Source: an uncultured Eubacteriales bacterium (GTDB lineage: Bacteria > Bacillota > Clostridia > Oscillospirales > CAG-272). From it: a stretch of 64,000 bases of DNA. Within the stretch, counting starts at the first letter, position 1. Each line of letters opens with the position of its first letter. The position numbers and the translations under genes are program-made. Shown here one piece after another: positions 2,772 to 59,427 of this stretch. The notes below the pieces were generated by a model, which saw only the letters and a list, made by a program, of their open reading frames with translations, was not told where the DNA came from and searched no databases. The stretch spans positions 5,755-69,754 of the forward strand of contig CAKSLU010000007.1 of NCBI GenBank assembly GCA_934474225.1, in the 5' to 3' direction.

Positions 2772-2858
2772 GATATTTGTCCTTTGGTATGGTGTGATGG
2801 GGGAGGCTTCCCTTGGGGGAAGGCTATGTTAGAATGCGCACGGGCATGTGCACATCTT

Positions 2859-2968
2859 CAGCCCCCCTCGGTGAGGGGGCTGTCACCGATAGGTGACTGG
2901 GGGAGTTTTTGCTTTGTACAAAACTCCTTCCGGCGCCGTTCGGCGCCACCTCCCTCACCGAGGGAGGT
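2859..2968 (+). repeat. R1 five-hairpin element, subtype b
   Basis: CAGCCCCCCTCGGTGAGGGGGCTG / GTCACCGATAGGTGAC / GGAGTTTTT..AAAACTCC / GGCGCCGTTCGGCGCC / CCTCCCTCACCGAGGGAGG. An orphan GCTTCCC-TTGG-GGGAAGC hairpin lies at about 2803-2824. Confidence 0.85.
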
Positions 2969-2992
2969 AAAAAGATAGAATGCGTTTGGTTG

Positions 2993-3126
2993 CGGCGGGA
3001 GACAGACGGCGCCCTACGGTAGAAATCGTGTGCGATGAGCAAAATTACCGCTTTTCTGTAGGGGCGATTCACGAATCGCCCGCTTTGCCTCAGTGGGTGC
3101 GGACCGTCGAGGACGCCGGTCCCTAC
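2993..3126. repeat. REP/BIME-like cluster of GTAGGG-headed palindromic units
   Basis: GCGGCGGGAGACAGACGGCGCCCTAC (2993-3017), a 40-nt linker, GTAGGGGCGATTCACGAATCGCCCG (3058-3082), and the inverted unit GCGGACCGTCGAGGACGCCGGTCCCTAC (3099-3126). Confidence 0.85.
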
Positions 3127-3145: not shown

Positions 3146-3256
3146 GGCTCCCCTGTGCAAGGGGAGCTGGCGCGTAAGCGCCTGAGGGGTTGTTTCGTTG
3201 CTCTGTAACAATCCCTCCGTCGGCTCCGCCGACACCTCCCTTTACACAAGGGAGGC
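3146..3256 (+). repeat. R1 five-hairpin element, subtype a
   Basis: GGCTCCCCTGTGCAAGGGGAGC / GGCGCGTAAGCGCC / GAGGGGTTGT..ACAATCCCTC / GTCGGCTCCGCCGAC / CCTCCCTTTACACAAGGGAGG. Confidence 0.9.
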
Positions 3257-6495: not shown

Positions 6496-6634
6496 GGCTT
6501 CCCTTGGGGGAAGCTGTCGCCGTAGGCGACTGATGAGGGATTGATGCAAGCAAAGCATCGCACTGTGCTGTGCCTGCTGCCTGCATGCCCTCATCCGTCA
6601 CGCTTCGCGTGCCACCTTCCCCAACGGGGAAGGC
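6496..6634 (+). repeat. R1 five-hairpin element, subtype c
   Basis: GGCTTCCCTTGGGGGAAGC / GTCGCCGTAGGCGAC / GATGAGGG..(50-nt loop)..CCCTCATC / CACGCTTCGCGTG / CCTTCCCCAACGGGGAAGG. Confidence 0.85.
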
Positions 6635-8319: not shown

Positions 8320-8437
8320 GCGGCGGGAGCGAGCCCCCGCCCTACGGTACAATTTTTTGCAAACCGGTAGGGGTCGGCGCCCTCGACGACCCGTTTTACT
8401 GCGGCGGCGACGGACCGTCGGGGACGCCGGTCCCTAC
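8320..8437. repeat. REP/BIME-like cluster between mreB and mreC
   Basis: GCGGCGGGAGCGAGCCCCCGCCCTAC (8320-8345), a 21-nt linker, GTAGGGGTCGGCGCCCTCGACGACCCG (8367-8393), and the inverted unit CGGACCGTCGGGGACGCCGGTCCCTAC (8411-8437). Confidence 0.85.
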
Positions 8438-9393: not shown

Positions 9394-9608
9394 GGCTCCC
9401 CTGTGCAAGGGGTGAGCTGTCCGAGACGCGCAGCGTCTCGCGGAGTTTTTCTTCGTCGGCTGAACACCGACGATTTCGCGATGCGAAACCGAAAAACATC
9501 CTGACCGTCAGCGCCTGAGGGGTTGTTTCGTGCTTTTACAATCTGCTTTGCTTTGTAACAATCCCTCCGGCATGCTCCGCATGCCACCTCCCTTTACACA
9601 AGGGAGGC
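9394..9608 (+). repeat. R1 element, long form (subtype a plus inserted hairpin and module X)
   Basis: H1 GGCTCCCCTGTGCAAGGGGTGAGC, then hairpin CGAGACGCGCAGCGTCTCG, then module X (9442-9501). The usual GAGGGGTTGT..ACAATCCCTC / GGCATGCTCCGCATGCC / CCTCCCTTTACACAAGGGAGG follow. Confidence 0.9.
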
Positions 9609-12958: not shown

Positions 12959-13088
12959 TGCGCAGCATCACGCCGTTTGCGGCAGCGCCGCAACTTCATT
13001 TGCGCAAGCAACTCCCTCCCTTTTGCAAAAAAATGATTGCATTTGCCCCGCGCGTGGATTATAATATATTATTATGATGTTTTCTTTC

Positions 13089-13202
13089 GGCTCCCCTGTG
13101 CAAGGGGAGCTGTCACCGATAGGTGACTGAGGGGTTGTTCCTTGGCTATGTAACAATCCCTCCGCCGCCGTTCGGCGGCACCTCCCTTTGCACAAGGGAG
13201 GC
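13089..13202 (+). repeat. R1 five-hairpin element, subtype a
   Basis: GGCTCCCCTGTGCAAGGGGAGC / GTCACCGATAGGTGAC / GAGGGGTTGT..ACAATCCCTC / GCCGCCGTTCGGCGGC / CCTCCCTTTGCACAAGGGAGG. Confidence 0.9.
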
Positions 13203-15974: not shown

Positions 15975-15991
15975 GGATTTGTACATCAAAA

Positions 15992-16025
15992 AGCAGCTTC
16001 AACCTTGGTTGAAGCTGCTTTTTTA
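15992..16025 (+). terminator. Rho-independent terminator after the aminotransferase gene
   Basis: Hairpin AGCAGCTTCAACC-TTGG-TTGAAGCTGCT followed by T6. An A-run precedes it, so it may work in both directions. Confidence 0.8.
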
Positions 16026-16040
16026 CGATGTTGGCGGCGC

Positions 16041-16197
16041 GTAGTGGGCGAATCGCCGCAAAACGCGGCGGGAGACAAGCCCCCGCCCTACGGCAAAACG
16101 GTTTTCCATGCGCAAAACCCATACCAAACCTGTAGGGGCGACCATTGGTCGCCCGTTTTTGCTCTGTGCACAGCGGGCGACCGATGGTCGCCCCTAC
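16041..16197. repeat. REP/BIME-like cluster including a REPIN-like hairpin
   Basis: GTAGTGGGCGAATCGCC (16041-16057), GCGGCGGGAGACAAGCCCCCGCCCTAC (16065-16091), a 40-nt linker, and the inverted doublet GTAGGGGCGACCATTGGTCGCCCG..CGGGCGACCGATGGTCGCCCCTAC (16132-16197). Confidence 0.88.
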
Positions 16198-16236
16198 AAG
16201 TATGCAAAGAAATTGCTCTGCGGATCCGTCTCCACG

Positions 16237-16262
16237 CAAAAAAAGCCGCCCGGTGGGCGGCT
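16237..16262 (-). terminator. Rho-independent terminator of ackA
   Basis: On the minus strand AGCCGCCCACCGGGCGGCT is followed by T7. It lies about 17 nt after the ackA stop. Confidence 0.8.
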
Positions 16263-16278
16263 TTTTGTCTATCTTCTG

Positions 16279-17558: not shown

Positions 17559-17697
17559 GAAGGCGCGCACATATTTTTGAAAGAAGGGTGAAAATTTTCC
17601 CGCCGCGCTTGCGACGCCGCCGGAAAAGTGGTAAAATGGGAGGGAGAGAAATGGAGTTTTGGCTTCCCTATCCTTGCACGGGGCACAGCGCGCTTTC

Positions 17698-17810
17698 GGC
17701 TCCCCTGTGCAAGGGGAGCTGCCGCCGAATGGCGGCTGAGGGGTTGTATCTTTGCTCTGTAACAATCCCTCCGTCGGCTACGCCGACACCTCCCTTTGCA
17801 CAAGGGAGGC
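17698..17810 (+). repeat. R1 five-hairpin element, subtype a
   Basis: H2 is GCCGCCGAATGGCGGC and H4 is GTCGGCTACGCCGAC; H1, H3 and H5 are as in the other a-type copies. Confidence 0.9.
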
Positions 17811-17915: not shown

Positions 17916-17962
17916 GGCTCCTCCTGACGGGGGAGCTGTCGCCGAACGGCGACTGAGGGAGA
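17916..17962 (+). repeat. Truncated/degenerate R1 5' half
   Basis: GGCTCCTCCTGACGGGGGAGC / GTCGCCGAACGGCGAC / CTGAGGGAG.., then the similarity is lost. It lies about 55 nt upstream of tmcAL. Confidence 0.6.
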
Positions 17963-18016
17963 GATACCCGCTGAGCATAAATGTTCAGTCAACGATGAGG
18001 GAACAAGGAGGACGCC

Positions 18017-20255: not shown

Positions 20256-20268
20256 GATGTCTGCCTTT

Positions 20269-20428
20269 GGCTCCCCTGTGTAAGGGGTGAGCTGTACGAG
20301 ACGCGATGCGTTTAGGCTCCCCTGTGCAAGGGGAGCTGTCACCGTCAGGTGACTGAGGGGTTGTATCTGTGCCATGTAACAATCCCTCCGCCGCCGTTCG
20401 GCGGCACCTCCCTTTACACAAGGGAGGC
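20269..20428 (+). repeat. Partial long-form 5' segment (20269-20314) fused to a full R1 subtype a (20315-20428)
   Basis: GGCTCCCCTGTGTAAGGGGTGAGCTGTACGAGACGCGATGCGTTTA, then a complete element with H2 GTCACCGTCAGGTGAC and H4 GCCGCCGTTCGGCGGC. Confidence 0.88.
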
Positions 20429-20448
20429 GAAGATAGCCCAGCACGATT

Positions 20449-20525
20449 GCGGCGGGAGCGAGCCCCCGCCCTACGGTGTGCACATAGTTCCCGCTGTTCC
20501 GTAGGGGCGATTCATGAATCGCCCG
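20449..20525. repeat. REP-like head-to-head doublet
   Basis: GCGGCGGGAGCGAGCCCCCGCCCTAC, a 26-nt linker (GGTGTGCACATAG..), then GTAGGGGCGATTCATGAATCGCCCG. Confidence 0.85.
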
Positions 20526-21075: not shown

Positions 21076-21211
21076 GGCTTCCCCGTTGGGGAAGCTGGCG
21101 CGTAGCGCCTGATGAGGGATTGCACAAAGCAAAACATCGCGCCATGCTGTGCCGGCTGCCTGCATGCCCTCATCCCCCGCCTACGGCGGTACCTTCCCCA
21201 CCGGGGAAGGC
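21076..21211 (+). repeat. R1 five-hairpin element, subtype c
   Basis: GGCTTCCCCGTTGGGGAAGC / GGCGCGTAGCGCC / GATGAGGG..CCCTCATC / CCGCCTACGGCGG / CCTTCCCCACCGGGGAAGG. Confidence 0.88.
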
Positions 21212-28905: not shown

Positions 28906-32127
<3,222 letters not shown>

Positions 32128-32128
32128 T

Positions 32129-32235
32129 CAGCCCCCTCGGTGAGGGGGCTGTCACCGATAGGTGACTAGGGGAGTTTTGCAGAGAGCAAGACTCCTTCCG
32201 TCGGCTTCGCCGACACCTCCCTCAACGAGGGAGGT
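32129..32235 (+). repeat. R1 five-hairpin element, subtype b
   Basis: CAGCCCCCTCGGTGAGGGGGCTG / GTCACCGATAGGTGAC / GGAGTTTTGC..AGACTCC / GTCGGCTTCGCCGAC / CCTCCCTCAACGAGGGAGG. Confidence 0.88.
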
Positions 32236-32259: not shown

Positions 32260-32458
32260 GCGGCGGGAGCAAGCCCCCGCCCTACGGTGGAGTGGGGACA
32301 GAGTTCGCCTTCCCCGGCGGGGGAAGGTGGCGAGCTTGCCTCGTCGGATGAGGCGTTGCCGCATCTCATGCGGCGAACACGGCGGGAGCGAGCCCCTGCC
32401 CTACGGCATGTAGAAAATCTTTGCTAACCTGTAGGGACCGGCGTCCGGGGCGGTCCGG
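32260..32458. repeat. REP-like units plus a degenerate c-type R1 fragment
   Basis: GCGGCGGGAGCAAGCCCCCGCCCTAC (32260-32285). Degenerate fragment CCTTCCCCGGCGGGGGAAGG..GATGAGG.. (about 32304-32372). ACGGCGGGAGCGAGCCCCTGCCCTAC (32379-32404), a 26-nt linker, then GTAGGGACCGGCGTCCGGGGCGGTCCGG (32431-32458). Confidence 0.75.
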
Positions 32459-34777: not shown

Positions 34778-34931
34778 GGCGTCCCTTGGGGGAAGGCTAA
34801 GACGCGGCGGGAGCAAGCCCCCGCCCTACGGTGTGTAGAAACGCTTTGCAAACTCGGTAGGGGTCGGCGCCTCGACGACCCGCAATCGTGCGCAATCCAA
34901 TTTCGGCTCCCCTGTAGGCGAAGATAGATTC
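34778..34931. repeat. REP-like doublet flanked by an orphan c-type hairpin and an internally deleted R1
   Basis: GGCGTCCCTTGGGGGAAGGC (34778-34797). GCGGCGGGAGCAAGCCCCCGCCCTAC (34804-34829), a 27-nt linker, then GTAGGGGTCGGCGCCTCGACGACCCG (34857-34882). TTCGGCTCCCCTGTAGGCGAAGATAG (about 34905-34930) joins the left arm of H1 directly to the usual 3' flank of H5. Confidence 0.75.
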
Positions 34932-38699: not shown

Positions 38700-38807
38700 G
38701 TAGGGGCGACCATCGGTCGCCCGCCTGCACGATGGCAAAAGCGGGCGACCAATGGTCGCCCCTACGGTTTGTGCGGAGGTTTATGCATACCTGTAGGGAC
38801 CGGCGTC
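38700..38807. repeat. REPIN-like hairpin plus a truncated REP unit
   Basis: GTAGGGGCGACCATCGGTCGCCCG..CGGGCGACCAATGGTCGCCCCTAC (38700-38765). GTAGGGACCGGCGTC (38793-38807) is cut off where the R1 5' flank ATTTTCGG begins. Confidence 0.85.
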
Positions 38808-38813
38808 ATTTTC

Positions 38814-38927
38814 GGCTCCCCTGTGTAAGGGGAGCAGTCACCGTCAGGTGACTGAGGGGTTGTATCTTTACTCTGTAACAATCCCTCCGCCGTCATTCGA
38901 CGGCACCTCCCTTTACACAAGGGAGGC
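38814..38927 (+). repeat. R1 five-hairpin element, subtype a
   Basis: H1 is GGCTCCCCTGTGTAAGGGGAGC, H2 is GTCACCGTCAGGTGAC and H4 is GCCGTCATTCGACGGC; H3 and H5 are canonical. Confidence 0.9.
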
Positions 38928-42571: not shown

Positions 42572-42740
42572 GTAGGGGTCGGCGCCTCGACGACCCGCAC
42601 CAACCAAAGCAAAAACGGACCGTCGAGGACGCCGGTCCCTACAAAAGTTACATCGGTACGGTTGCGGGCGACGGGTGGTCGCCCCTACGGTAATGTGGGG
42701 ACTGTGTACACACCGTAGGGCGGGGGCTTGCTCCCGCCGC
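42572..42740. repeat. REP/BIME-like cluster (inverted relative to all other clusters)
   Basis: GTAGGGGTCGGCGCCTCGACGACCCG (42572-42597), CGGACCGTCGAGGACGCCGGTCCCTAC (42616-42642), CGGGCGACGGGTGGTCGCCCCTAC (42665-42688), a 26-nt linker, then GTAGGGCGGGGGCTTGCTCCCGCCGC (42715-42740). Confidence 0.88.
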
Positions 42741-42749
42741 TCTATCTGA

Positions 42750-42947
42750 GCCTCCCCCCCGGCAAAGGGAGGTGTCATGCGAAGCATGACGGAGGGATTG
42801 TTGCATGGCAAAGAAACAACCCCTCAGTCACCTATCGCCAGGATGTTTTTCGGTTTCGCTCGCGAAATCGTCGGTGTTCAGCCGACGAAGAAAAACTCCG
42901 CGAGACGCATCGCGTCTCGTACAGCTCACCCCTTGCACAGGGGAGCC
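42750..42947 (-). repeat. R1 long form in reverse orientation (module X at 42841-42899)
   Basis: The plus strand reads the reverse complement: GCCTCCC..GGGAGGT / ..GGAGGGATTGT..ACAACCCCTCAG / GTCACCTATCGCC / module X rc / CGAGACGCATCGCGTCTCG / GCTCACCCCTTGCACAGGGGAGCC. Confidence 0.88.
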
Positions 42948-46615: not shown

Positions 46616-46787
46616 GCGGCGGGAGACAGACGGCGCCCTACGGTATGTACACGGTTACGGCTATTCCGTAGGGGCGACCATTGGTCGCCCGCTTAACGGG
46701 GTGCGAAAACGGGCGACCAATGGTCGCCCCTACAGGTGTGTGCGCCTTTTGTGCCATCCGGTAGGGGTCGGCGCCCTCGACGACCCG
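46616..46787. repeat. REP/BIME-like cluster with REPIN-like hairpin
   Basis: GCGGCGGGAGACAGACGGCGCCCTAC (46616-46641), a 26-nt linker, GTAGGGGCGACCATTGGTCGCCCG..CGGGCGACCAATGGTCGCCCCTAC (46668-46733), then GTAGGGGTCGGCGCCCTCGACGACCCG (46761-46787). Confidence 0.88.
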
Positions 46788-50472: not shown

Positions 50473-50694
50473 TTTTCGGCTCCCCTGTGCAAATTTTCGG
50501 CTCCCCTGTGCAAGGGGTGAGCTGTACGAGACGCGATGCGTCTCGCGGAGTTTTTCTTCGTCGGCTGAACACCGACGATTTCGCGAGCGAAACCGAAAAA
50601 CATCCTGGCGATAGCCGTCTGAGGGGTTGTTCCGTGGCTCTGTAACAATCCCTCCGTCGCCGTTCGGCGACACCTCCCTTTGCACAAGGGAGGC
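50472..50694 (+). repeat. R1 long form (50499-50694, module X 50547-50605) preceded by a perfect 21-nt tandem duplication of its 5' end
   Basis: ATTTTCGGCTCCCCTGTGCAA occurs at 50472-50492 and again at 50493-50513. The first copy starts within the uvrB stop codon. Confidence 0.9.
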
Positions 50695-50703
50695 TCAGAT
50701 AGA

Positions 50704-50819
50704 GCGGCGGGAGCAGACGGCGCCCTACGGTGTGTGCACAGTTCCCCTCATTTCGTAGGGGCGACCATTGGTCGCCCGCCTATACAAAGCGGAAACGGGC
50801 GACCAATGGTCGCCCCTAC
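50704..50819. repeat. REP-like doublet plus REPIN-like hairpin
   Basis: GCGGCGGGAGCAGACGGCGCCCTAC (50704-50728), a 26-nt linker, then GTAGGGGCGACCATTGGTCGCCCG..CGGGCGACCAATGGTCGCCCCTAC (50755-50819). Confidence 0.88.
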
Positions 50820-50889
50820 AGTTTTGCAATTCATTCATTTTCGCATCCCATTTCACTCCCCCTACTTTTTCACATGAAAGGGTATTACC

Positions 50890-53747: not shown

Positions 53748-53824
53748 CCGCTATTCCGTAGGGGCGACCATTGGTCGCCCGTCCGTACCTAAGCGTTAAG
53801 CGGGCGATGGGTGGTCGCCCCTAC
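53748..53824. repeat. REPIN-like hairpin; copy 1 of a 77-nt perfect direct repeat
   Basis: CCGCTATTCCGTAGGGGCGACCATTGGTCGCCCGTCCGTACCTAAGCGTTAAGCGGGCGATGGGTGGTCGCCCCTAC is identical to 54078-54154. Confidence 0.92.
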
Positions 53825-53843
53825 AAAGTCAGTGCGTGCTTTC

Positions 53844-54029
53844 GGCTCCCCTGTGTAAGGGGAGCTGTACGAGACGCAAAGCGTTTCTTAGGCTTCCCCA
53901 ATGGGGAAGCTGTCGCCGTAGGCGACTGATGAGGGATTGATGAAAGCCAAACACCGCGCCATGCTGTGCCGGCTGCCTGCATGCCCTCATCCACCGCTAA
54001 CGCGGTCCCCCTTCCCCACCGGGGAAGGC
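53844..54029 (+). repeat. Partial long-form 5' segment (53844-53890) fused to a full R1 subtype c (53891-54029)
   Basis: GGCTCCCCTGTGTAAGGGGAGCTGTACGAGACGCAAAGCGTTTCTTA, then GGCTTCCCCAATGGGGAAGC / GTCGCCGTAGGCGAC / GATGAGGG..CCCTCATC / CCGCTAACGCGG / CCTTCCCCACCGGGGAAGG. Confidence 0.88.
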
Positions 54030-54035
54030 TTGGTT

Positions 54036-54154
54036 GCGGCGGGAGCAAGCCCCCGCCCTACGGTGTGTACACATTTTCCGCTATTCCGTAGGGGCGACCA
54101 TTGGTCGCCCGTCCGTACCTAAGCGTTAAGCGGGCGATGGGTGGTCGCCCCTAC
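54036..54154. repeat. REP-like doublet; contains copy 2 of the 77-nt direct repeat
   Basis: GCGGCGGGAGCAAGCCCCCGCCCTAC (54036-54061), a 26-nt linker, then the REPIN-like hairpin at 54088-54154. Confidence 0.9.
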
Positions 54155-54181: not shown

Positions 54182-54289
54182 GTAGGGGGCATGGCGACCG
54201 GAACGCAAGCGTTCCTCAGGAGTTTTTCTTCGTCGGCTGAACACCGACGATTTCGCTACGCGAAACCGAAAAACATCCTCGACGACCCG
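54182..54289. repeat. REP unit interrupted by inserted hairpin plus module X
   Basis: GTAGGGG | GCATGGCGACC GGAACGCAAGCGTTCC .. module X (54219-54278) | TCGACGACCCG. The two outer parts equal the ends of the intact unit GTAGGGGTCGGCGCCCTCGACGACCCG. Confidence 0.8.
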
Positions 54290-56179: not shown

Positions 56180-56256
56180 CGGGATGTAGCACAGCTTGGT
56201 AGTGCGCTTGGTTCGGGACCAAGAGGTCGGGTGTTCGAATCACCTCATTCCGACCA
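56180..56256 (+). tRNA. tRNA-Pro (anticodon CGG), CCA encoded
   Basis: Manual cloverleaf: acceptor CGGGATG/CATTCCG, D arm GCAC/GTGC, anticodon stem CTTGG/CCAAG with loop TTCGGGA, T arm GGGTG-TTCGAAT-CACCT, discriminator A, then CCA. Confidence 0.9.
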
Positions 56257-56308: not shown

Positions 56309-56439
56309 TGCTCCCCTGTGTAAGGGGAGCTGTCACCGTAGGTGACTGAGGGGTTGTTTTTTGCCTTTCAATCATCTTTTACCATGCAACAATCCCTCCG
56401 GCATGCTTTGCATGCCACCTCCCTTTACACAAGGGAGGC
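56309..56439 (+). repeat. R1 five-hairpin element, subtype a (enlarged H3 loop)
   Basis: TGCTCCCCTGTGTAAGGGGAGC / GTCACCGTAGGTGAC / GAGGGGTTGT..(about 38 nt)..ACAATCCCTC / GGCATGCTTTGCATGCC / CCTCCCTTTACACAAGGGAGG. Confidence 0.88.
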
Positions 56440-56443
56440 GAAT

Positions 56444-56469
56444 GCGGCGGGAGCGAGCCCCCGCCCTAC
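56444..56469 (-). repeat. Single REP-like unit
   Basis: The plus strand reads GCGGCGGGAGCGAGCCCCCGCCCTAC, followed by the usual GGTGTGTGCGC linker start. Confidence 0.85.
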
Positions 56470-59015: not shown

Positions 59016-59165
59016 GTCTATTTTAGGCTTCCCCATTGGGGGAAGGCTTGGATGCGGGGGAGACAGACGGCGCCCTACGGTGTGTGCGCATCTTTCGCCA
59101 TTCTGTAGGGACCGGCGTCCCCGACGGTCCGATTTGCTTTGATGGGTGCGGACCGCCCCAGACGC
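59016..59165. repeat. Orphan c-type hairpin plus REP-like doublet with REPIN-like hairpin
   Basis: GGCTTCCCCATTGGGGGAAGGC (about 59016-59039). GCGGGGGAGACAGACGGCGCCCTAC (59044-59068), a 26-nt linker, then GTAGGGACCGGCGTCCCCGACGGTCCG..GCGGACCGCCCCAGACGCCGGTCCCTAC (59095-59165). Confidence 0.85.
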
Positions 59166-59193: not shown

Positions 59194-59427
59194 GGCTCCC
59201 CTGTGCAAGGGGTGAGCTGTACGAGACGCGATGCGTCTCGCGGAGTTTTTCTTCGTCGGCTGAACACCGACGATTTCGCGAGCGAAACCGAAAAACATCC
59301 CGGCGGTGACTGAGGGGTTGTTCCGTGCTTTTGTAACAATCCCTCCGGCGCGCGTGATGTTTCCCGCAAGGGAAACTCATTAGGAACGCTTGCGTTCCGG
59401 GCCACACTCCCTTTACACAAGGGAGGC
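59194..59427 (+). repeat. R1 long form (module X 59242-59300) with expanded H4 region
   Basis: The H1 / CGAGACGCGATGCGTCTCG / module X / H3 parts are canonical. H4 is replaced by GTTTCCCGCAAGGGAAAC plus GGAACGCTTGCGTTCC hairpins. H5 is CTCCCTTTACACAAGGGAGG. Confidence 0.88.

Follow-up and report, generated by a model that had tools for sequence, protein, structure and literature searches.

A five-hairpin intergenic repeat of gut Clostridia shares its ends with a small DUF559-encoding unit

The 64,000-nucleotide stretch of contig CAKSLU010000007.1 analyzed here (hereafter the window), which derives from an uncultured Eubacteriales bacterium, carries a recurrent intergenic element, called R1, that consists of five consecutive hairpins (H1 to H5). 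The element was noted in a previous sequence-only reading of the window, wherein 11 full copies were listed and no known RNA or repeat family was recognized. An element without coding potential whose stems vary by paired substitutions raises the question of whether it serves as a structured RNA, is an orphan repeat, or belongs to something that moves. We find that the ends of R1 are the same as those of a small unit that carries a gene for a DUF559 protein in many genomes. It is very probable that R1 is a gene-less derivative of this ~450-bp unit, akin to a MITE, or miniature inverted-repeat transposable element.

R1 ends and the DUF559 unit

R1 is a real repeat that has a five-hairpin architecture and resides between genes. 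A covariance model representing the five-hairpin structure was prepared from an alignment of 15 copies (from the window and other genomes) and was used to scan the window without filtering. All 11 copies listed earlier were recovered, the sequence of the focal copy at 13089-13202 is exactly as it had been read, and the total rises to 15 full copies (38-127 bits, E = 1e-7 to 6e-29), 14 on the plus strand and one on the minus strand. These copies are 106-234 nt in length and sum to ~2.2 kb, which is ~3.4% of the window. The four copies absent from the earlier count are “long” versions of subtype a that carry an ~100-nt multi-hairpin module at the H2 position.

The three subtypes (a, b, and c) had been distinguished by the joint exchange of H1, H3, and H5, and this distinction holds. 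H1 and H5 indeed form palindromic terminal inverted repeats, wherein H5 is ~20/24 identical to the reverse complement of H1 with the loop counted. H2 and H4 of one copy are not complementary, such that the hairpins are local and do not form a single long palindrome. The common architecture also stands, with some corrections of detail: the copy at 56309 begins with TGCTCCCC and has an H3 loop of 31 nt, and H4 frequently includes one mismatch near its base. The proposed absence of coding potential was borne out, as length variation in H2 breaks the reading frame and excludes a conserved peptide, and the open reading frames (ORFs) that cross R1 copies are spurious only. No transposase is encoded in the window, as judged by Pfam searches of its genes and by strain annotation. 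When the focal copy is folded as single-stranded DNA, the five hairpins constitute the minimum-energy structure on either strand (-39.0 and -38.3 kcal/mol versus about -18.6 for dinucleotide shuffles; z = -7.6 and -7.9), and none of 200 shuffles is as good.

Each end of R1 is composed, from the outside inward, of a terminal hairpin or palindrome that is conserved (T), a hairpin that is free in sequence and length (V) and that keeps its pairing and a G..A (often GNA) loop, and a conserved inner box (I). The left and right ends are called alpha and beta, respectively. In the focal copy these parts are arranged as follows, where “seed” refers to a 15-sequence seed alignment.

13089-13202, plus strand: focal R1 copy, subtype a (126 bits; sequence), in the 5′ untranslated region of asnS, ~20 nt past a TTGCAT-17-TATAAT promoter
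13090-13110, plus strand: T hairpin, alpha type (H1), GCTCCCCT-GTGCA-AGGGGAGC; invariant in the seed, with UA/CG and CG/UA swaps across 150 aligned matches
13112-13127, plus strand: V1 (H2), GTCACC-GATA-GGTGAC; two-sided changes at 4/6 pairs; GCCGCC-GAAT-GGCGGC in strains L001-L008
13129-13138, plus strand: inner box, alpha type (5′ arm of H3), GAGGGGTTGT; invariant, and matching the box before the stop region of the DUF559 unit
13153-13162, plus strand: inner box, beta type (3′ arm of H3), ACAATCCCTC; the parent unit uses its complement, GGAGGGATTGT, as ribosome-binding site
13164-13179, plus strand: V2 (H4), GCCGCC-GTTC-GGCGGC; two-sided changes at 5/6 pairs; GTCACGC-TTC-GCGTGAC in the strains
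13181-13201, plus strand: T hairpin, beta type (H5), CCTCCCTT-TGCAC-AAGGGAGG

The distribution of the left module was assessed by scanning one genome per species for an exact pattern (GGGGAGCTG, 12-18 free bases, CTGAGGGGTTGT), which is present in at least 117 stretches from at least ~65 assemblies, each representing a different GTDB species. Where R1 left halves lack a right half at these R1-selected loci, the sole recurrent adjacent ORF encodes an ~120-aa protein. This protein is a member of the DUF559 family (Pfam PF04480, E = 1e-29 to 6e-29, ~100 bits versus a cut-off of 20.6, for four proteins), and DUF559 is found in 8 of the at least 117 loci listed, mostly within 500 nt. DUF559 genes lie between R1-type ends at loci L016, L101, L122, L138, L150, L156, and L163. 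Both ends are of the alpha type at L016 and of the beta type at L101, and a beta end on the left is combined with an alpha end on the right at L122. Thus, R1 is not the orphan repeat that it had seemed to be, as its ends are those of a DUF559-carrying unit in many genomes.

The complete unit spans ~450 bp and has a single gene, whose product is a DUF559 protein of 122 aa. Its limits are identical in three gene contexts, and are arranged as AAAGCCTCCCTTGTGTAAAGGGAGGTG - V - CGGAGGGATTGT - ATG ... DUF559 ... ACAATCCCTCAG - V - CAGCTCCCTTTACACAAGGGAGCCTT. The gene is built into these ends. The left inner box, CGGAGGGATTGT, is the Shine-Dalgarno sequence (ribosome-binding site) of the unit, and the right inner box together with V encodes the C-terminal residues QSLSQLR and the stop codon. 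A search for DUF559 homologs yielded 8000 candidates, of which the best 120 are 82-100% identical and reside mostly on contigs of 0.5-3 kb; nearly all of these best 120 have this same C terminus. Among R1 left ends the commonest V is likewise that of the unit (TCAGC-GAA-GCTGA on the inward strand), and R1 elements of the L025 type share both V hairpins with DUF559 units, such that the difference is essentially the loss of the ORF. This relationship also accounts for H3, which had been described as a hairpin in its own right. Loss of the gene with retention of both ends would place the two inner boxes next to each other and give H3 its hairpin appearance; H3 is therefore only the inner boxes of both inverted repeats side by side.

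An analysis that starts from the protein gave a comparable result. When metagenomic loci were picked solely for similarity to DUF559 (79 loci, 47-84% identity) and without regard to R1, 45 proved to have flanking inverted repeats that score far above those of shuffled sequences. Units resembling the b-type (L195) and c-type (L218) elements of the window are found among these 45. Subtypes a, b, and c therefore appear to correspond to separate DUF559 lineages, for b and c by resemblance. DUF559 units that are 85-90% identical to each other occupy different gene neighborhoods, and one unit is missing from the syntenic locus L290, where the flanking genes are 98% identical; there, ~640 nt replace a terminator and the boundaries are imprecise. 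Two other relatives were considered as empty sites for the unit and rejected on account of broken synteny. A conserved terminator-like hairpin (AAAATCCTCCCT..AGGGAGGATTT or AAAATCCGACCTATGA..ATAGGTCGGATTT) is located 40-70 nt past the right end of the DUF559 units at L122, L150, L138, and L163, and may either belong to the mobile unit or be a target that it prefers.

The DUF559 gene is under purifying selection, with a ratio of nonsynonymous to synonymous substitution rates (dN/dS) of 0.04-0.14 between units at dS values of 0.4-1.8. Over the same divergence T and I remain identical and V changes by paired substitutions (GCATGGC/GCCATGA, GCACGGC/GCCGTGA, GCGCGGC/GCCGCGA), which indicates that the ends are more constrained than synonymous sites. 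Residues D51, E62, D64, and H68 are invariant. The protein matches the DUF559 structure 3HRL by phmmer at 1.5e-10, and its AlphaFold model (predicted local distance difference test score of 82) matches 3R3P (E = 4e-4) and 3HRL (E = 9e-4) by Foldseek, with weaker matches to PvuRts1I/AbaSI and to Vsr (1VSR). Judging from this model, the protein is a Vsr-like PD-(D/E)XK nuclease whose activity is predicted. 3R3P is the catalytic domain of the Vsr-like homing endonuclease I-Bth0305I, which acts as a homodimer and cuts a pseudopalindromic site (PMC3239194). DUF559, Vsr, and 3R3P have been assigned to a single PD-(D/E)XK cluster (PMC3424549), and the sole DUF559 protein studied in vivo, VsrA of Caulobacter, is able to cause DNA breaks (PMC12907096). 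No intron or intein context is seen around the DUF559 units that were examined.

Pairing constraint and two-fold symmetry

The compensatory changes that had been reported for H2 and H4 are evident in the seed, wherein two-sided changes occur at four of the six H2 pairs and five of the six H4 pairs, with no one-sided changes. Overall, 96.5% of cells in the seed pair, versus 44-58% when the partners are slid. H1, H3, and H5 are invariant in this alignment, as is the G.T that the beta inner box forms opposite the alpha box. A second alignment of 150 matches (100 loci in other genomes) has two-sided changes at 35 of 38 pairs, and 93.9% of its cells pair versus 48-55% with slid partners; it was fitted to the model and includes both strands of most copies, and its use is qualitative. 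Related copies are included in the covariation alignments, and the counts represent non-independent events.

Among the 150 matches, H1 and H5 (T) covary across genomes, for example by exchange of U-A for C-G and of C-G for U-A. Compensatory change is lacking in H3 in both the seed and the 150 matches, which exhibit only one-sided changes and mismatches at this location. In a count that does not depend on the model, at least four consecutive Watson–Crick pairs extend from the base in 83 of 92 distinct left-end V sequences, compared with ~6% of shuffles. Thus, T and V are hairpins under pairing selection. The earlier account of H2 and H4 requires one qualification: the variation is compensatory, and part of it, between copies and even at a single locus between strains, stems from exchange or renewed insertion of the entire element and not from mutation in place alone.

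Selection on pairing could act on either RNA or DNA, and the loops distinguish the two. Read inward, the V loops of alpha (left) ends are G..A in 61 cases and T..C in one, and those of beta (right) ends are G..A in 25 cases and T..C in none. The sequence GCGNAGC occurs 30 times versus once for its complement. At one end the favored loop therefore belongs to the top strand, and at the opposite end to the bottom strand, as expected for two-fold symmetric DNA and not for a transcript. The T loops are likewise mirror images of one another. GNA triloops of the d(GCGAAGC) type form exceptionally stable DNA mini-hairpins. Because alignment A3 contains both strands of most copies, a test for wobble enrichment was invalid on it and was rerun on oriented V sets, in which the commonest mismatch at both ends is G.A near the base of the stem, and one-sided G.T is rare and not favored. 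The length of V ranges from 11 to 27 nt. This range is hard to reconcile with a duplex site of fixed spacing, and would be harmless if V is looped out such that T and I become adjacent.

The structured-RNA reading implied by the earlier description is thus opposed by symmetry at the level of DNA, and also by an orientation that is independent of genes. Fourteen of the 15 copies are on the plus strand (binomial p ~0.001), and those between co-directional genes are sense to transcription in five cases and antisense in six; the copy at 21076 is located between a terminator and a promoter. GC skew was considered as a marker of replication direction and set aside, as gene orientation dominates the skew in this window. 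No named RNA family matches R1. With Rfam 15, searched against the window at gathering and permissive E-value thresholds, the sole passing match is a tRNA, and of the models that overlap R1 the best, Clostridiales-2, reaches 20.9 bits versus a gathering score of 58.6. Sub-threshold matches to ar7, MicX, and Atu_L6 (15988-16270) were rejected, since they fall on palindromes resembling repetitive extragenic palindromes (REPs) and are probably artefacts of the REP content of the models. These observations point to R1 working as DNA rather than RNA.

Spread, strain polymorphism, and the copies in the window

Among the matches listed, the carriers of the left module are nearly all uncultured Clostridia, Oscillospiraceae, or Eubacteriales of the human, chicken, rabbit, or ruminant gut, along with Gemmiger formicilis An812. 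T and I are almost identical throughout these matches, whereas V and the central loop are wholly different. The left module is also present in 12 IMG/VR viral contigs.

The asparaginyl-tRNA synthetase (AsnS) encoded in the window is 98% identical to proteins labeled ‘MAG: Clostridiales bacterium’, and the contigs compared with the window comprise ten from the same species (AsnS 98% identical) and two from a related one (90%). This comparison of strains, which had been suggested earlier as a check, reveals empty, filled, and other-subtype alleles at orthologous sites. The site 3′ of the Metallophos gene, which has the a-type copy at 20315 in the window, is empty in L128 and L130 and carries a c-like element in L131, L132, L134, and L135. 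Both subtypes have their junctions immediately 5′ of a REP-like hairpin, at positions that differ by no more than 1-2 nt. In the spacer between mreC and the next gene (copy at 9394), L131 and L135 have a short a-type element with the same V2, and other strains have a solo hairpin alone. In the window allele, V1 of the short element is replaced by the 100-nt module and V2 is unchanged. Four alleles exist among strains in the U32-maf spacer. The R1 elements of the strains differ from those of the window in V1 and V2 in the asnS leader, and in V1, V2, and the loop in the ackA spacer (copy at 17698), with T and I unchanged at both sites.

The related species (AsnS 90% identical) lacks R1 in its asnS leader and retains the sigma-70-type promoter (TTGCAT-17-TATAAT, located at 13030-13066 in the window). 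R1 thus adds at least 114 nt, plus some flanking bases, to the leader of asnS. The spacer between ackA and the NTase gene is a mosaic between strains throughout. At ~14350-14450 of L128-L137, upstream of the HIGH_NTase1 gene, AGTGAAG/AGTGAAA heptamers form a variable run, which the orthologous region of the window (17600-17690) lacks. In L129 (12813-16650) and in L006/L008, the aminotransferase and ackA genes are separated by an ~4-kb insertion that includes a resolvase fragment along with unknown ORFs, and the window (15975-16278) is without it.

No consistent direct repeat indicative of target duplication is present in the flanks of five polymorphic sites and several DUF559 units, where junctions are ambiguous by 1-2 nt. 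The empty Metallophos site has no solo T palindrome, and a general rule whereby R1 inserts into one already present was therefore rejected. A duplicated half-T (50478-50492), a fusion (34905-34927), and the hybrid solo hairpins have junctions in the T loop that are compatible with breakage at T, and that could equally arise from replication slippage between two T hairpins.

The remaining R1 copies and fragments in the window are listed below, with the supporting evidence in parentheses.

2805-2824, plus strand: solo T hairpin, alpha 5′ arm plus beta 3′ arm, GGCTTCCC-TTGG-GGGAAGGC
2859-2967, plus strand: full copy, subtype b (75 bits; sequence)
3146-3256, plus strand: full copy, subtype a (114 bits)
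6496-6634, plus strand: full copy, subtype c (57 bits); different alleles in other strains at this intergenic site
9394-9608, plus strand: long subtype-a copy, ~100-nt multi-hairpin module in place of V1 (covariance model; sequence)
17698-17810, plus strand: full copy, subtype a (124 bits)
17916-17993, plus strand: partial or degenerate copy, T, V, and inner box followed by diverged sequence (28 bits; sequence)
20266-20311, plus strand: truncated left end of the long type (T plus half of V), directly 5′ of the next copy, with the same truncation at 53839-53884 (sequence)
20315-20428, plus strand: full copy, subtype a (127 bits)
21076-21211, plus strand: full copy, subtype c, between a terminator and a minus-strand promoter (47 bits; context)
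31971-32128, plus strand: partial long-type copy adjoining the next copy (sequence)
32129-32234, plus strand: full copy, subtype b (67 bits)
34778-34797, plus strand: solo T hairpin adjoining a REP-C (sequence)
34905-34927, plus strand: fusion of the T 5′ arm and loop to a beta-T end with AAGATAG flank, a deletion remnant (sequence)
38814-38927, plus strand: full copy, subtype a (126 bits)
42750-42947, minus strand: long subtype-a copy, the sole minus-strand copy, inverted along with the adjacent REP-C (50.8 bits on the minus strand versus 36.1 on the plus strand)
50499-50694, plus strand: long subtype-a copy, with the duplicated half-T (50478-50492) just before it (covariance model; sequence)
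53891-54029, plus strand: full copy, subtype c, with the truncated left end 53839-53884 just before it (43 bits)
56309-56439, plus strand: full copy, subtype a, central loop of 31 nt (110 bits)
59026-59047, plus strand: solo T hairpin adjoining a REP-C (sequence)
59194-59427, plus strand: long subtype-a copy with additional right-side hairpins (covariance model; sequence)

In the three solo hairpins (2805-2824, 34778-34797, and 59026-59047), the 5′ arm is that of H1 and the 3′ arm that of H5. At 2805-2824 the hybrid arms yield a palindrome that is imperfect, as loss of the interior would predict. The ~100-nt module of long copies (9420-9505, 31997-32085, 42840-42925 on the minus strand, 50525-50610, 54219-54279, and 59220-59305) is composed of a V-like hairpin (CGAGACGC/GCGTCTCG), a stem (GGAGTTTTTC/GAAAAACATCC), and two inner hairpins. 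It occupies the V1 position of long R1 elements and is found once outside R1 (54219-54279), and it may be a nested second element. A tRNA-Pro(CGG) gene at 56180-56256 is followed by a terminator and then by an R1 copy 53 nt downstream. ORFs that read through R1 and REPs (20349-20504 and others) encode peptides such as ...GGTSLYTREA... and ...PPPYGV..., and many ‘hypothetical proteins’ in databases probably originate from read-through ORFs in repeats of this sort.

R1 shares its intergenic regions with three types of REP-like sequence. REP-C, GCGGCGGGAG-n4-9-CCCGCCCTAC, is the reverse complement of a GTAG-headed palindrome and often lies head-to-head with another REP. REP-A forms inverted pairs of GTAGGGGCGACCATTGGTCGCCCG that resemble REP doublets forming hairpins (REPINs).

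2992-3017, 8320-8345, 16065-16091, 20449-20474, 32260-32285, and 34804-34829, plus strand: REP-C
42715-42740, minus strand: REP-C
46616-46641, 50704-50728, 54036-54061, and 56444-56469, plus strand: REP-C
38700-38765, 46668-46733, 50755-50820, 53758-53824, 54088-54154, and 16132-16197: REP-A
8367, 17869, 32431, 34857, 38793, 42572, 46761, and 59105: REP-B, GTAGGG(G/A)(T/C)CGGCG..

Strict REP-C sequences number ten on the plus strand (13 with variants) and one on the minus strand, whatever the direction of the genes, and this bias may reflect spread coupled to replication. A REP-C is found no more than 25 nt from eight of the 15 R1 copies and from two solo hairpins. Since REP-C is equally strand-biased, the orientation of R1 is tied to that of its preferred neighbor. 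REPs are known insertion targets of several insertion sequences (PMC1525189). No gene for a REP-associated tyrosine transposase (RAYT) or other Y1 protein was found among the window genes with Pfam.

Proposed mobilization, known systems, and rival explanations

R1 is short (below ~300 bp), noncoding, and multicopy, its ends are shared with a protein-coding element, and its insertions are polymorphic, as in a MITE. MITEs and other modular intergenic repeats of bacteria include Correia/NEMIS of Neisseria, RUP and BOX of pneumococcus, and ERIC. Such repeats have been reviewed (PMC3184786). Like them, R1 is 100-230 bp in length with terminal inverted repeats, exists as dozens to hundreds of intergenic copies with modular and long variants, differs in insertion between strains, and is often co-transcribed with adjacent genes. 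Unlike them, R1 has as its parent an ~450-bp unit encoding only DUF559 rather than an insertion sequence with a DDE transposase, has no target-site duplication that could be seen, and holds in each inverted repeat a paired hairpin of free sequence. No prior description of R1 was found in Rfam 15 or in the open-access literature searched. Within these sources the kind of element (MITE- or REP-like intergenic repeat) is known, and the departures are the three-part end with its sequence-free hairpin, the apparent lack of target duplication, and the DUF559-only parent.

R1 also resembles REP/REPIN-RAYT systems and bacterial interspersed mosaic elements (BIMEs), which are GC-rich intergenic palindromes with compensatory stem changes whose paired inverted units form a larger hairpin-prone element, without target duplication and in clustered mosaic arrays (PMC3116915, PMC3333891, PMC2817692, PMC3733652), and here it is physically interleaved with true GTAG-headed REPs. 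However, R1 has no GTAG or CGTC head. Its modules start with GGCTCCCC or GCCTCCC, and the GTAG heads belong to the nearby REP-A, -B, and -C. In addition, R1 has three-part ends in place of single palindromes of 20-40 nt, and a PD-(D/E)XK nuclease inside the element in place of a single-copy Y1 (HUH) transposase flanked by REPs. With IS200/IS605 elements and their miniatures, R1 has in common a very small size, strand-biased insertion, and, as far as its junctions show, an absence of target duplication (PMC6006769, PMC3333891). IS200/IS605 ends are recognized as DNA hairpins, as R1 ends may be too. Those ends are asymmetric and one-stranded, whereas R1 has true inverted repeats with loop asymmetry on opposite strands, and the R1-associated ORF is a Vsr-like DUF559 nuclease and not an HUH Y1 protein. 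An identity as an IS200/IS605-derived miniature was therefore rejected, given the two-fold symmetry of the ends (loops included) and the DUF559 ORF.

The structure of integron attC sites is conserved over sequence, and these sites are recognized as folded single-stranded DNA. V of R1 similarly keeps structure rather than sequence, but R1 is dispersed among core genes, has conserved flanking modules, and lacks an integrase and R and L boxes; its context rules out an attC or CRISPR-like identity. The same fold is predicted for the protein of the unit as for the Vsr-like (EDxHD) enzyme I-Bth0305I and for Vsr/DUF559 nucleases (PMC3239194, PMC3424549, PMC12907096). I-Bth0305I is the homodimeric product of a selfish gene and has a pseudopalindromic site, and the T modules of R1 are 21-bp pseudopalindromes. 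In contrast to genes of this type, the DUF559 gene shows no intron or intein context and its product has no extra DNA-binding domain (122 aa in total). In contrast to classical homing endonuclease genes, the unit lies between inverted repeats of its own and has given rise to copies without the gene.

A mechanism that would join these features can be proposed. A selfish unit of ~450 bp encodes a Vsr-like nuclease, and its ends, in which the pairing and loop asymmetry of V are observed, would have to fold, as a cruciform or as single-stranded DNA. Folding or looping out of V would join the T palindrome to the I box at any V length. Probably acting as a dimer on T, a 21-bp pseudopalindrome and its likely site of binding or cutting, the nuclease would cut or nick the ends, and host replication and repair would complete the copying with no target duplication. 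The foot of other hairpins, such as REP-C, would be preferred for insertion. Gene-less copies retain all requirements in cis, and could be mobilized in trans. We lean modestly toward mobilization of R1 by the DUF559 nuclease. As a whole, the proposal that R1 is a non-autonomous mobile DNA element, the gene-less form of the DUF559 unit, is the best explanation of the data and a reasonably probable one. More tentatively, R1 and its DUF559 parents may represent an unrecognized class of prokaryotic mobile element, wherein the ~120-aa nuclease is the only protein, ends are recognized as folded DNA, the nuclease cuts or nicks at terminal palindromes, and the remainder is left to replication and repair by the host.

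Several facts weigh against this explanation. Clear inverted repeats are absent from 34 of the 79 DUF559 loci chosen by protein similarity. No DUF559 gene is present in the window or in the ~21 kb of ten related strains, and therefore a trans-acting source in this species must be assumed. DUF559 would have to cut the ends of R1, and to our knowledge a nuclease of ~120 aa is not by itself any known transposase. The boundaries of empty and filled sites are unclean: inserts bring additional, variable bases beyond the T hairpins, target duplications are not seen, and some of the polymorphism could stem from recombination among repeat-rich intergenic alleles. Finally, the strand bias of R1 is confounded with that of its neighbor REP-C.

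We also considered a different history, in which R1 is an older MITE- or REP-like repeat moved by another enzyme (of the Y1/RAYT type or unknown), and DUF559 is a homing-type passenger that has repeatedly invaded R1 centers, since a multicopy repeat is a convenient target. The nearest characterized structural relative of the protein is, after all, a homing endonuclease, the gene is always central and between the inner boxes, and GTAG-headed REPs, which are a hallmark of RAYTs, crowd the same intergenic regions and abut 8 of the 15 R1 copies; no DUF559 gene lies near the window. We nevertheless judge this history unlikely. The gene is built into the ends, with its ribosome-binding site in the left box and its last codons and stop in the right box and V. 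Moreover, each subtype-like lineage (b-like L195, c-like L218, and the a-type units) has its own DUF559 with matching ends, which fits a nuclease co-evolving with its own ends. R1 also lacks the GTAG head that defines REPs, and no other gene family recurs beside R1 halves.

It is less probable still, and in our view rather improbable, that R1 is a mostly immobile architectural element akin to REPs and BIMEs that is kept by the host (as gyrase or nucleoid cruciform sites, insulators, or stabilizers of mRNA 3′ ends), with homologous recombination producing the strain differences. Ordered arrays of reversed REP, R1, and REP-C, the imprecise junctions of empty and filled sites, and the very high density of the element would suit such a role. 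However, a single site that is empty in other strains has received two subtypes by separate insertions no more than 1-2 nt apart, T and I boxes are identical in at least ~65 assemblies of different GTDB species and extend to viral contigs, and the element is tied to a nuclease gene under purifying selection; a host function would in any case be compatible with mobility. A structured noncoding or cis-regulatory RNA (for stabilization, processing, or translation control) is highly improbable, even though several copies reside in transcribed leaders or between co-transcribed genes (as 20 nt past the asnS promoter), stem covariation is strong, and H5 sequesters a GGGAGG motif, given the lack of an Rfam match, the loops mirrored on opposite strands, the mixed sense and antisense copies with some outside transcription units, mismatches among which G.U is not favored, gain and loss between strains with flanking genes unchanged, and ends that belong to a protein-coding mobile unit.

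If the link between R1 and DUF559 holds, then a very common nuclease family would drive tiny mobile elements of a new type, which would provide a biological role for a large part of the DUF559 family. The ~450-bp units would be among the smallest autonomous mobile units known, having seeded thousands of miniature copies across gut Clostridia, and these copies would make up several percent of the intergenic DNA in many abundant, mostly uncultured members of this group. Repeats of the R1 type break metagenome assemblies, as reflected in the short contigs that carry most close DUF559 homologs, and strain differences in R1 offer useful strain markers. Copies in the promoters and leaders of core genes such as asnS are possible modulators of expression. 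A hairpin in each inverted repeat that is free in sequence and kept in pairing is a clean natural case of selection on DNA secondary structure.

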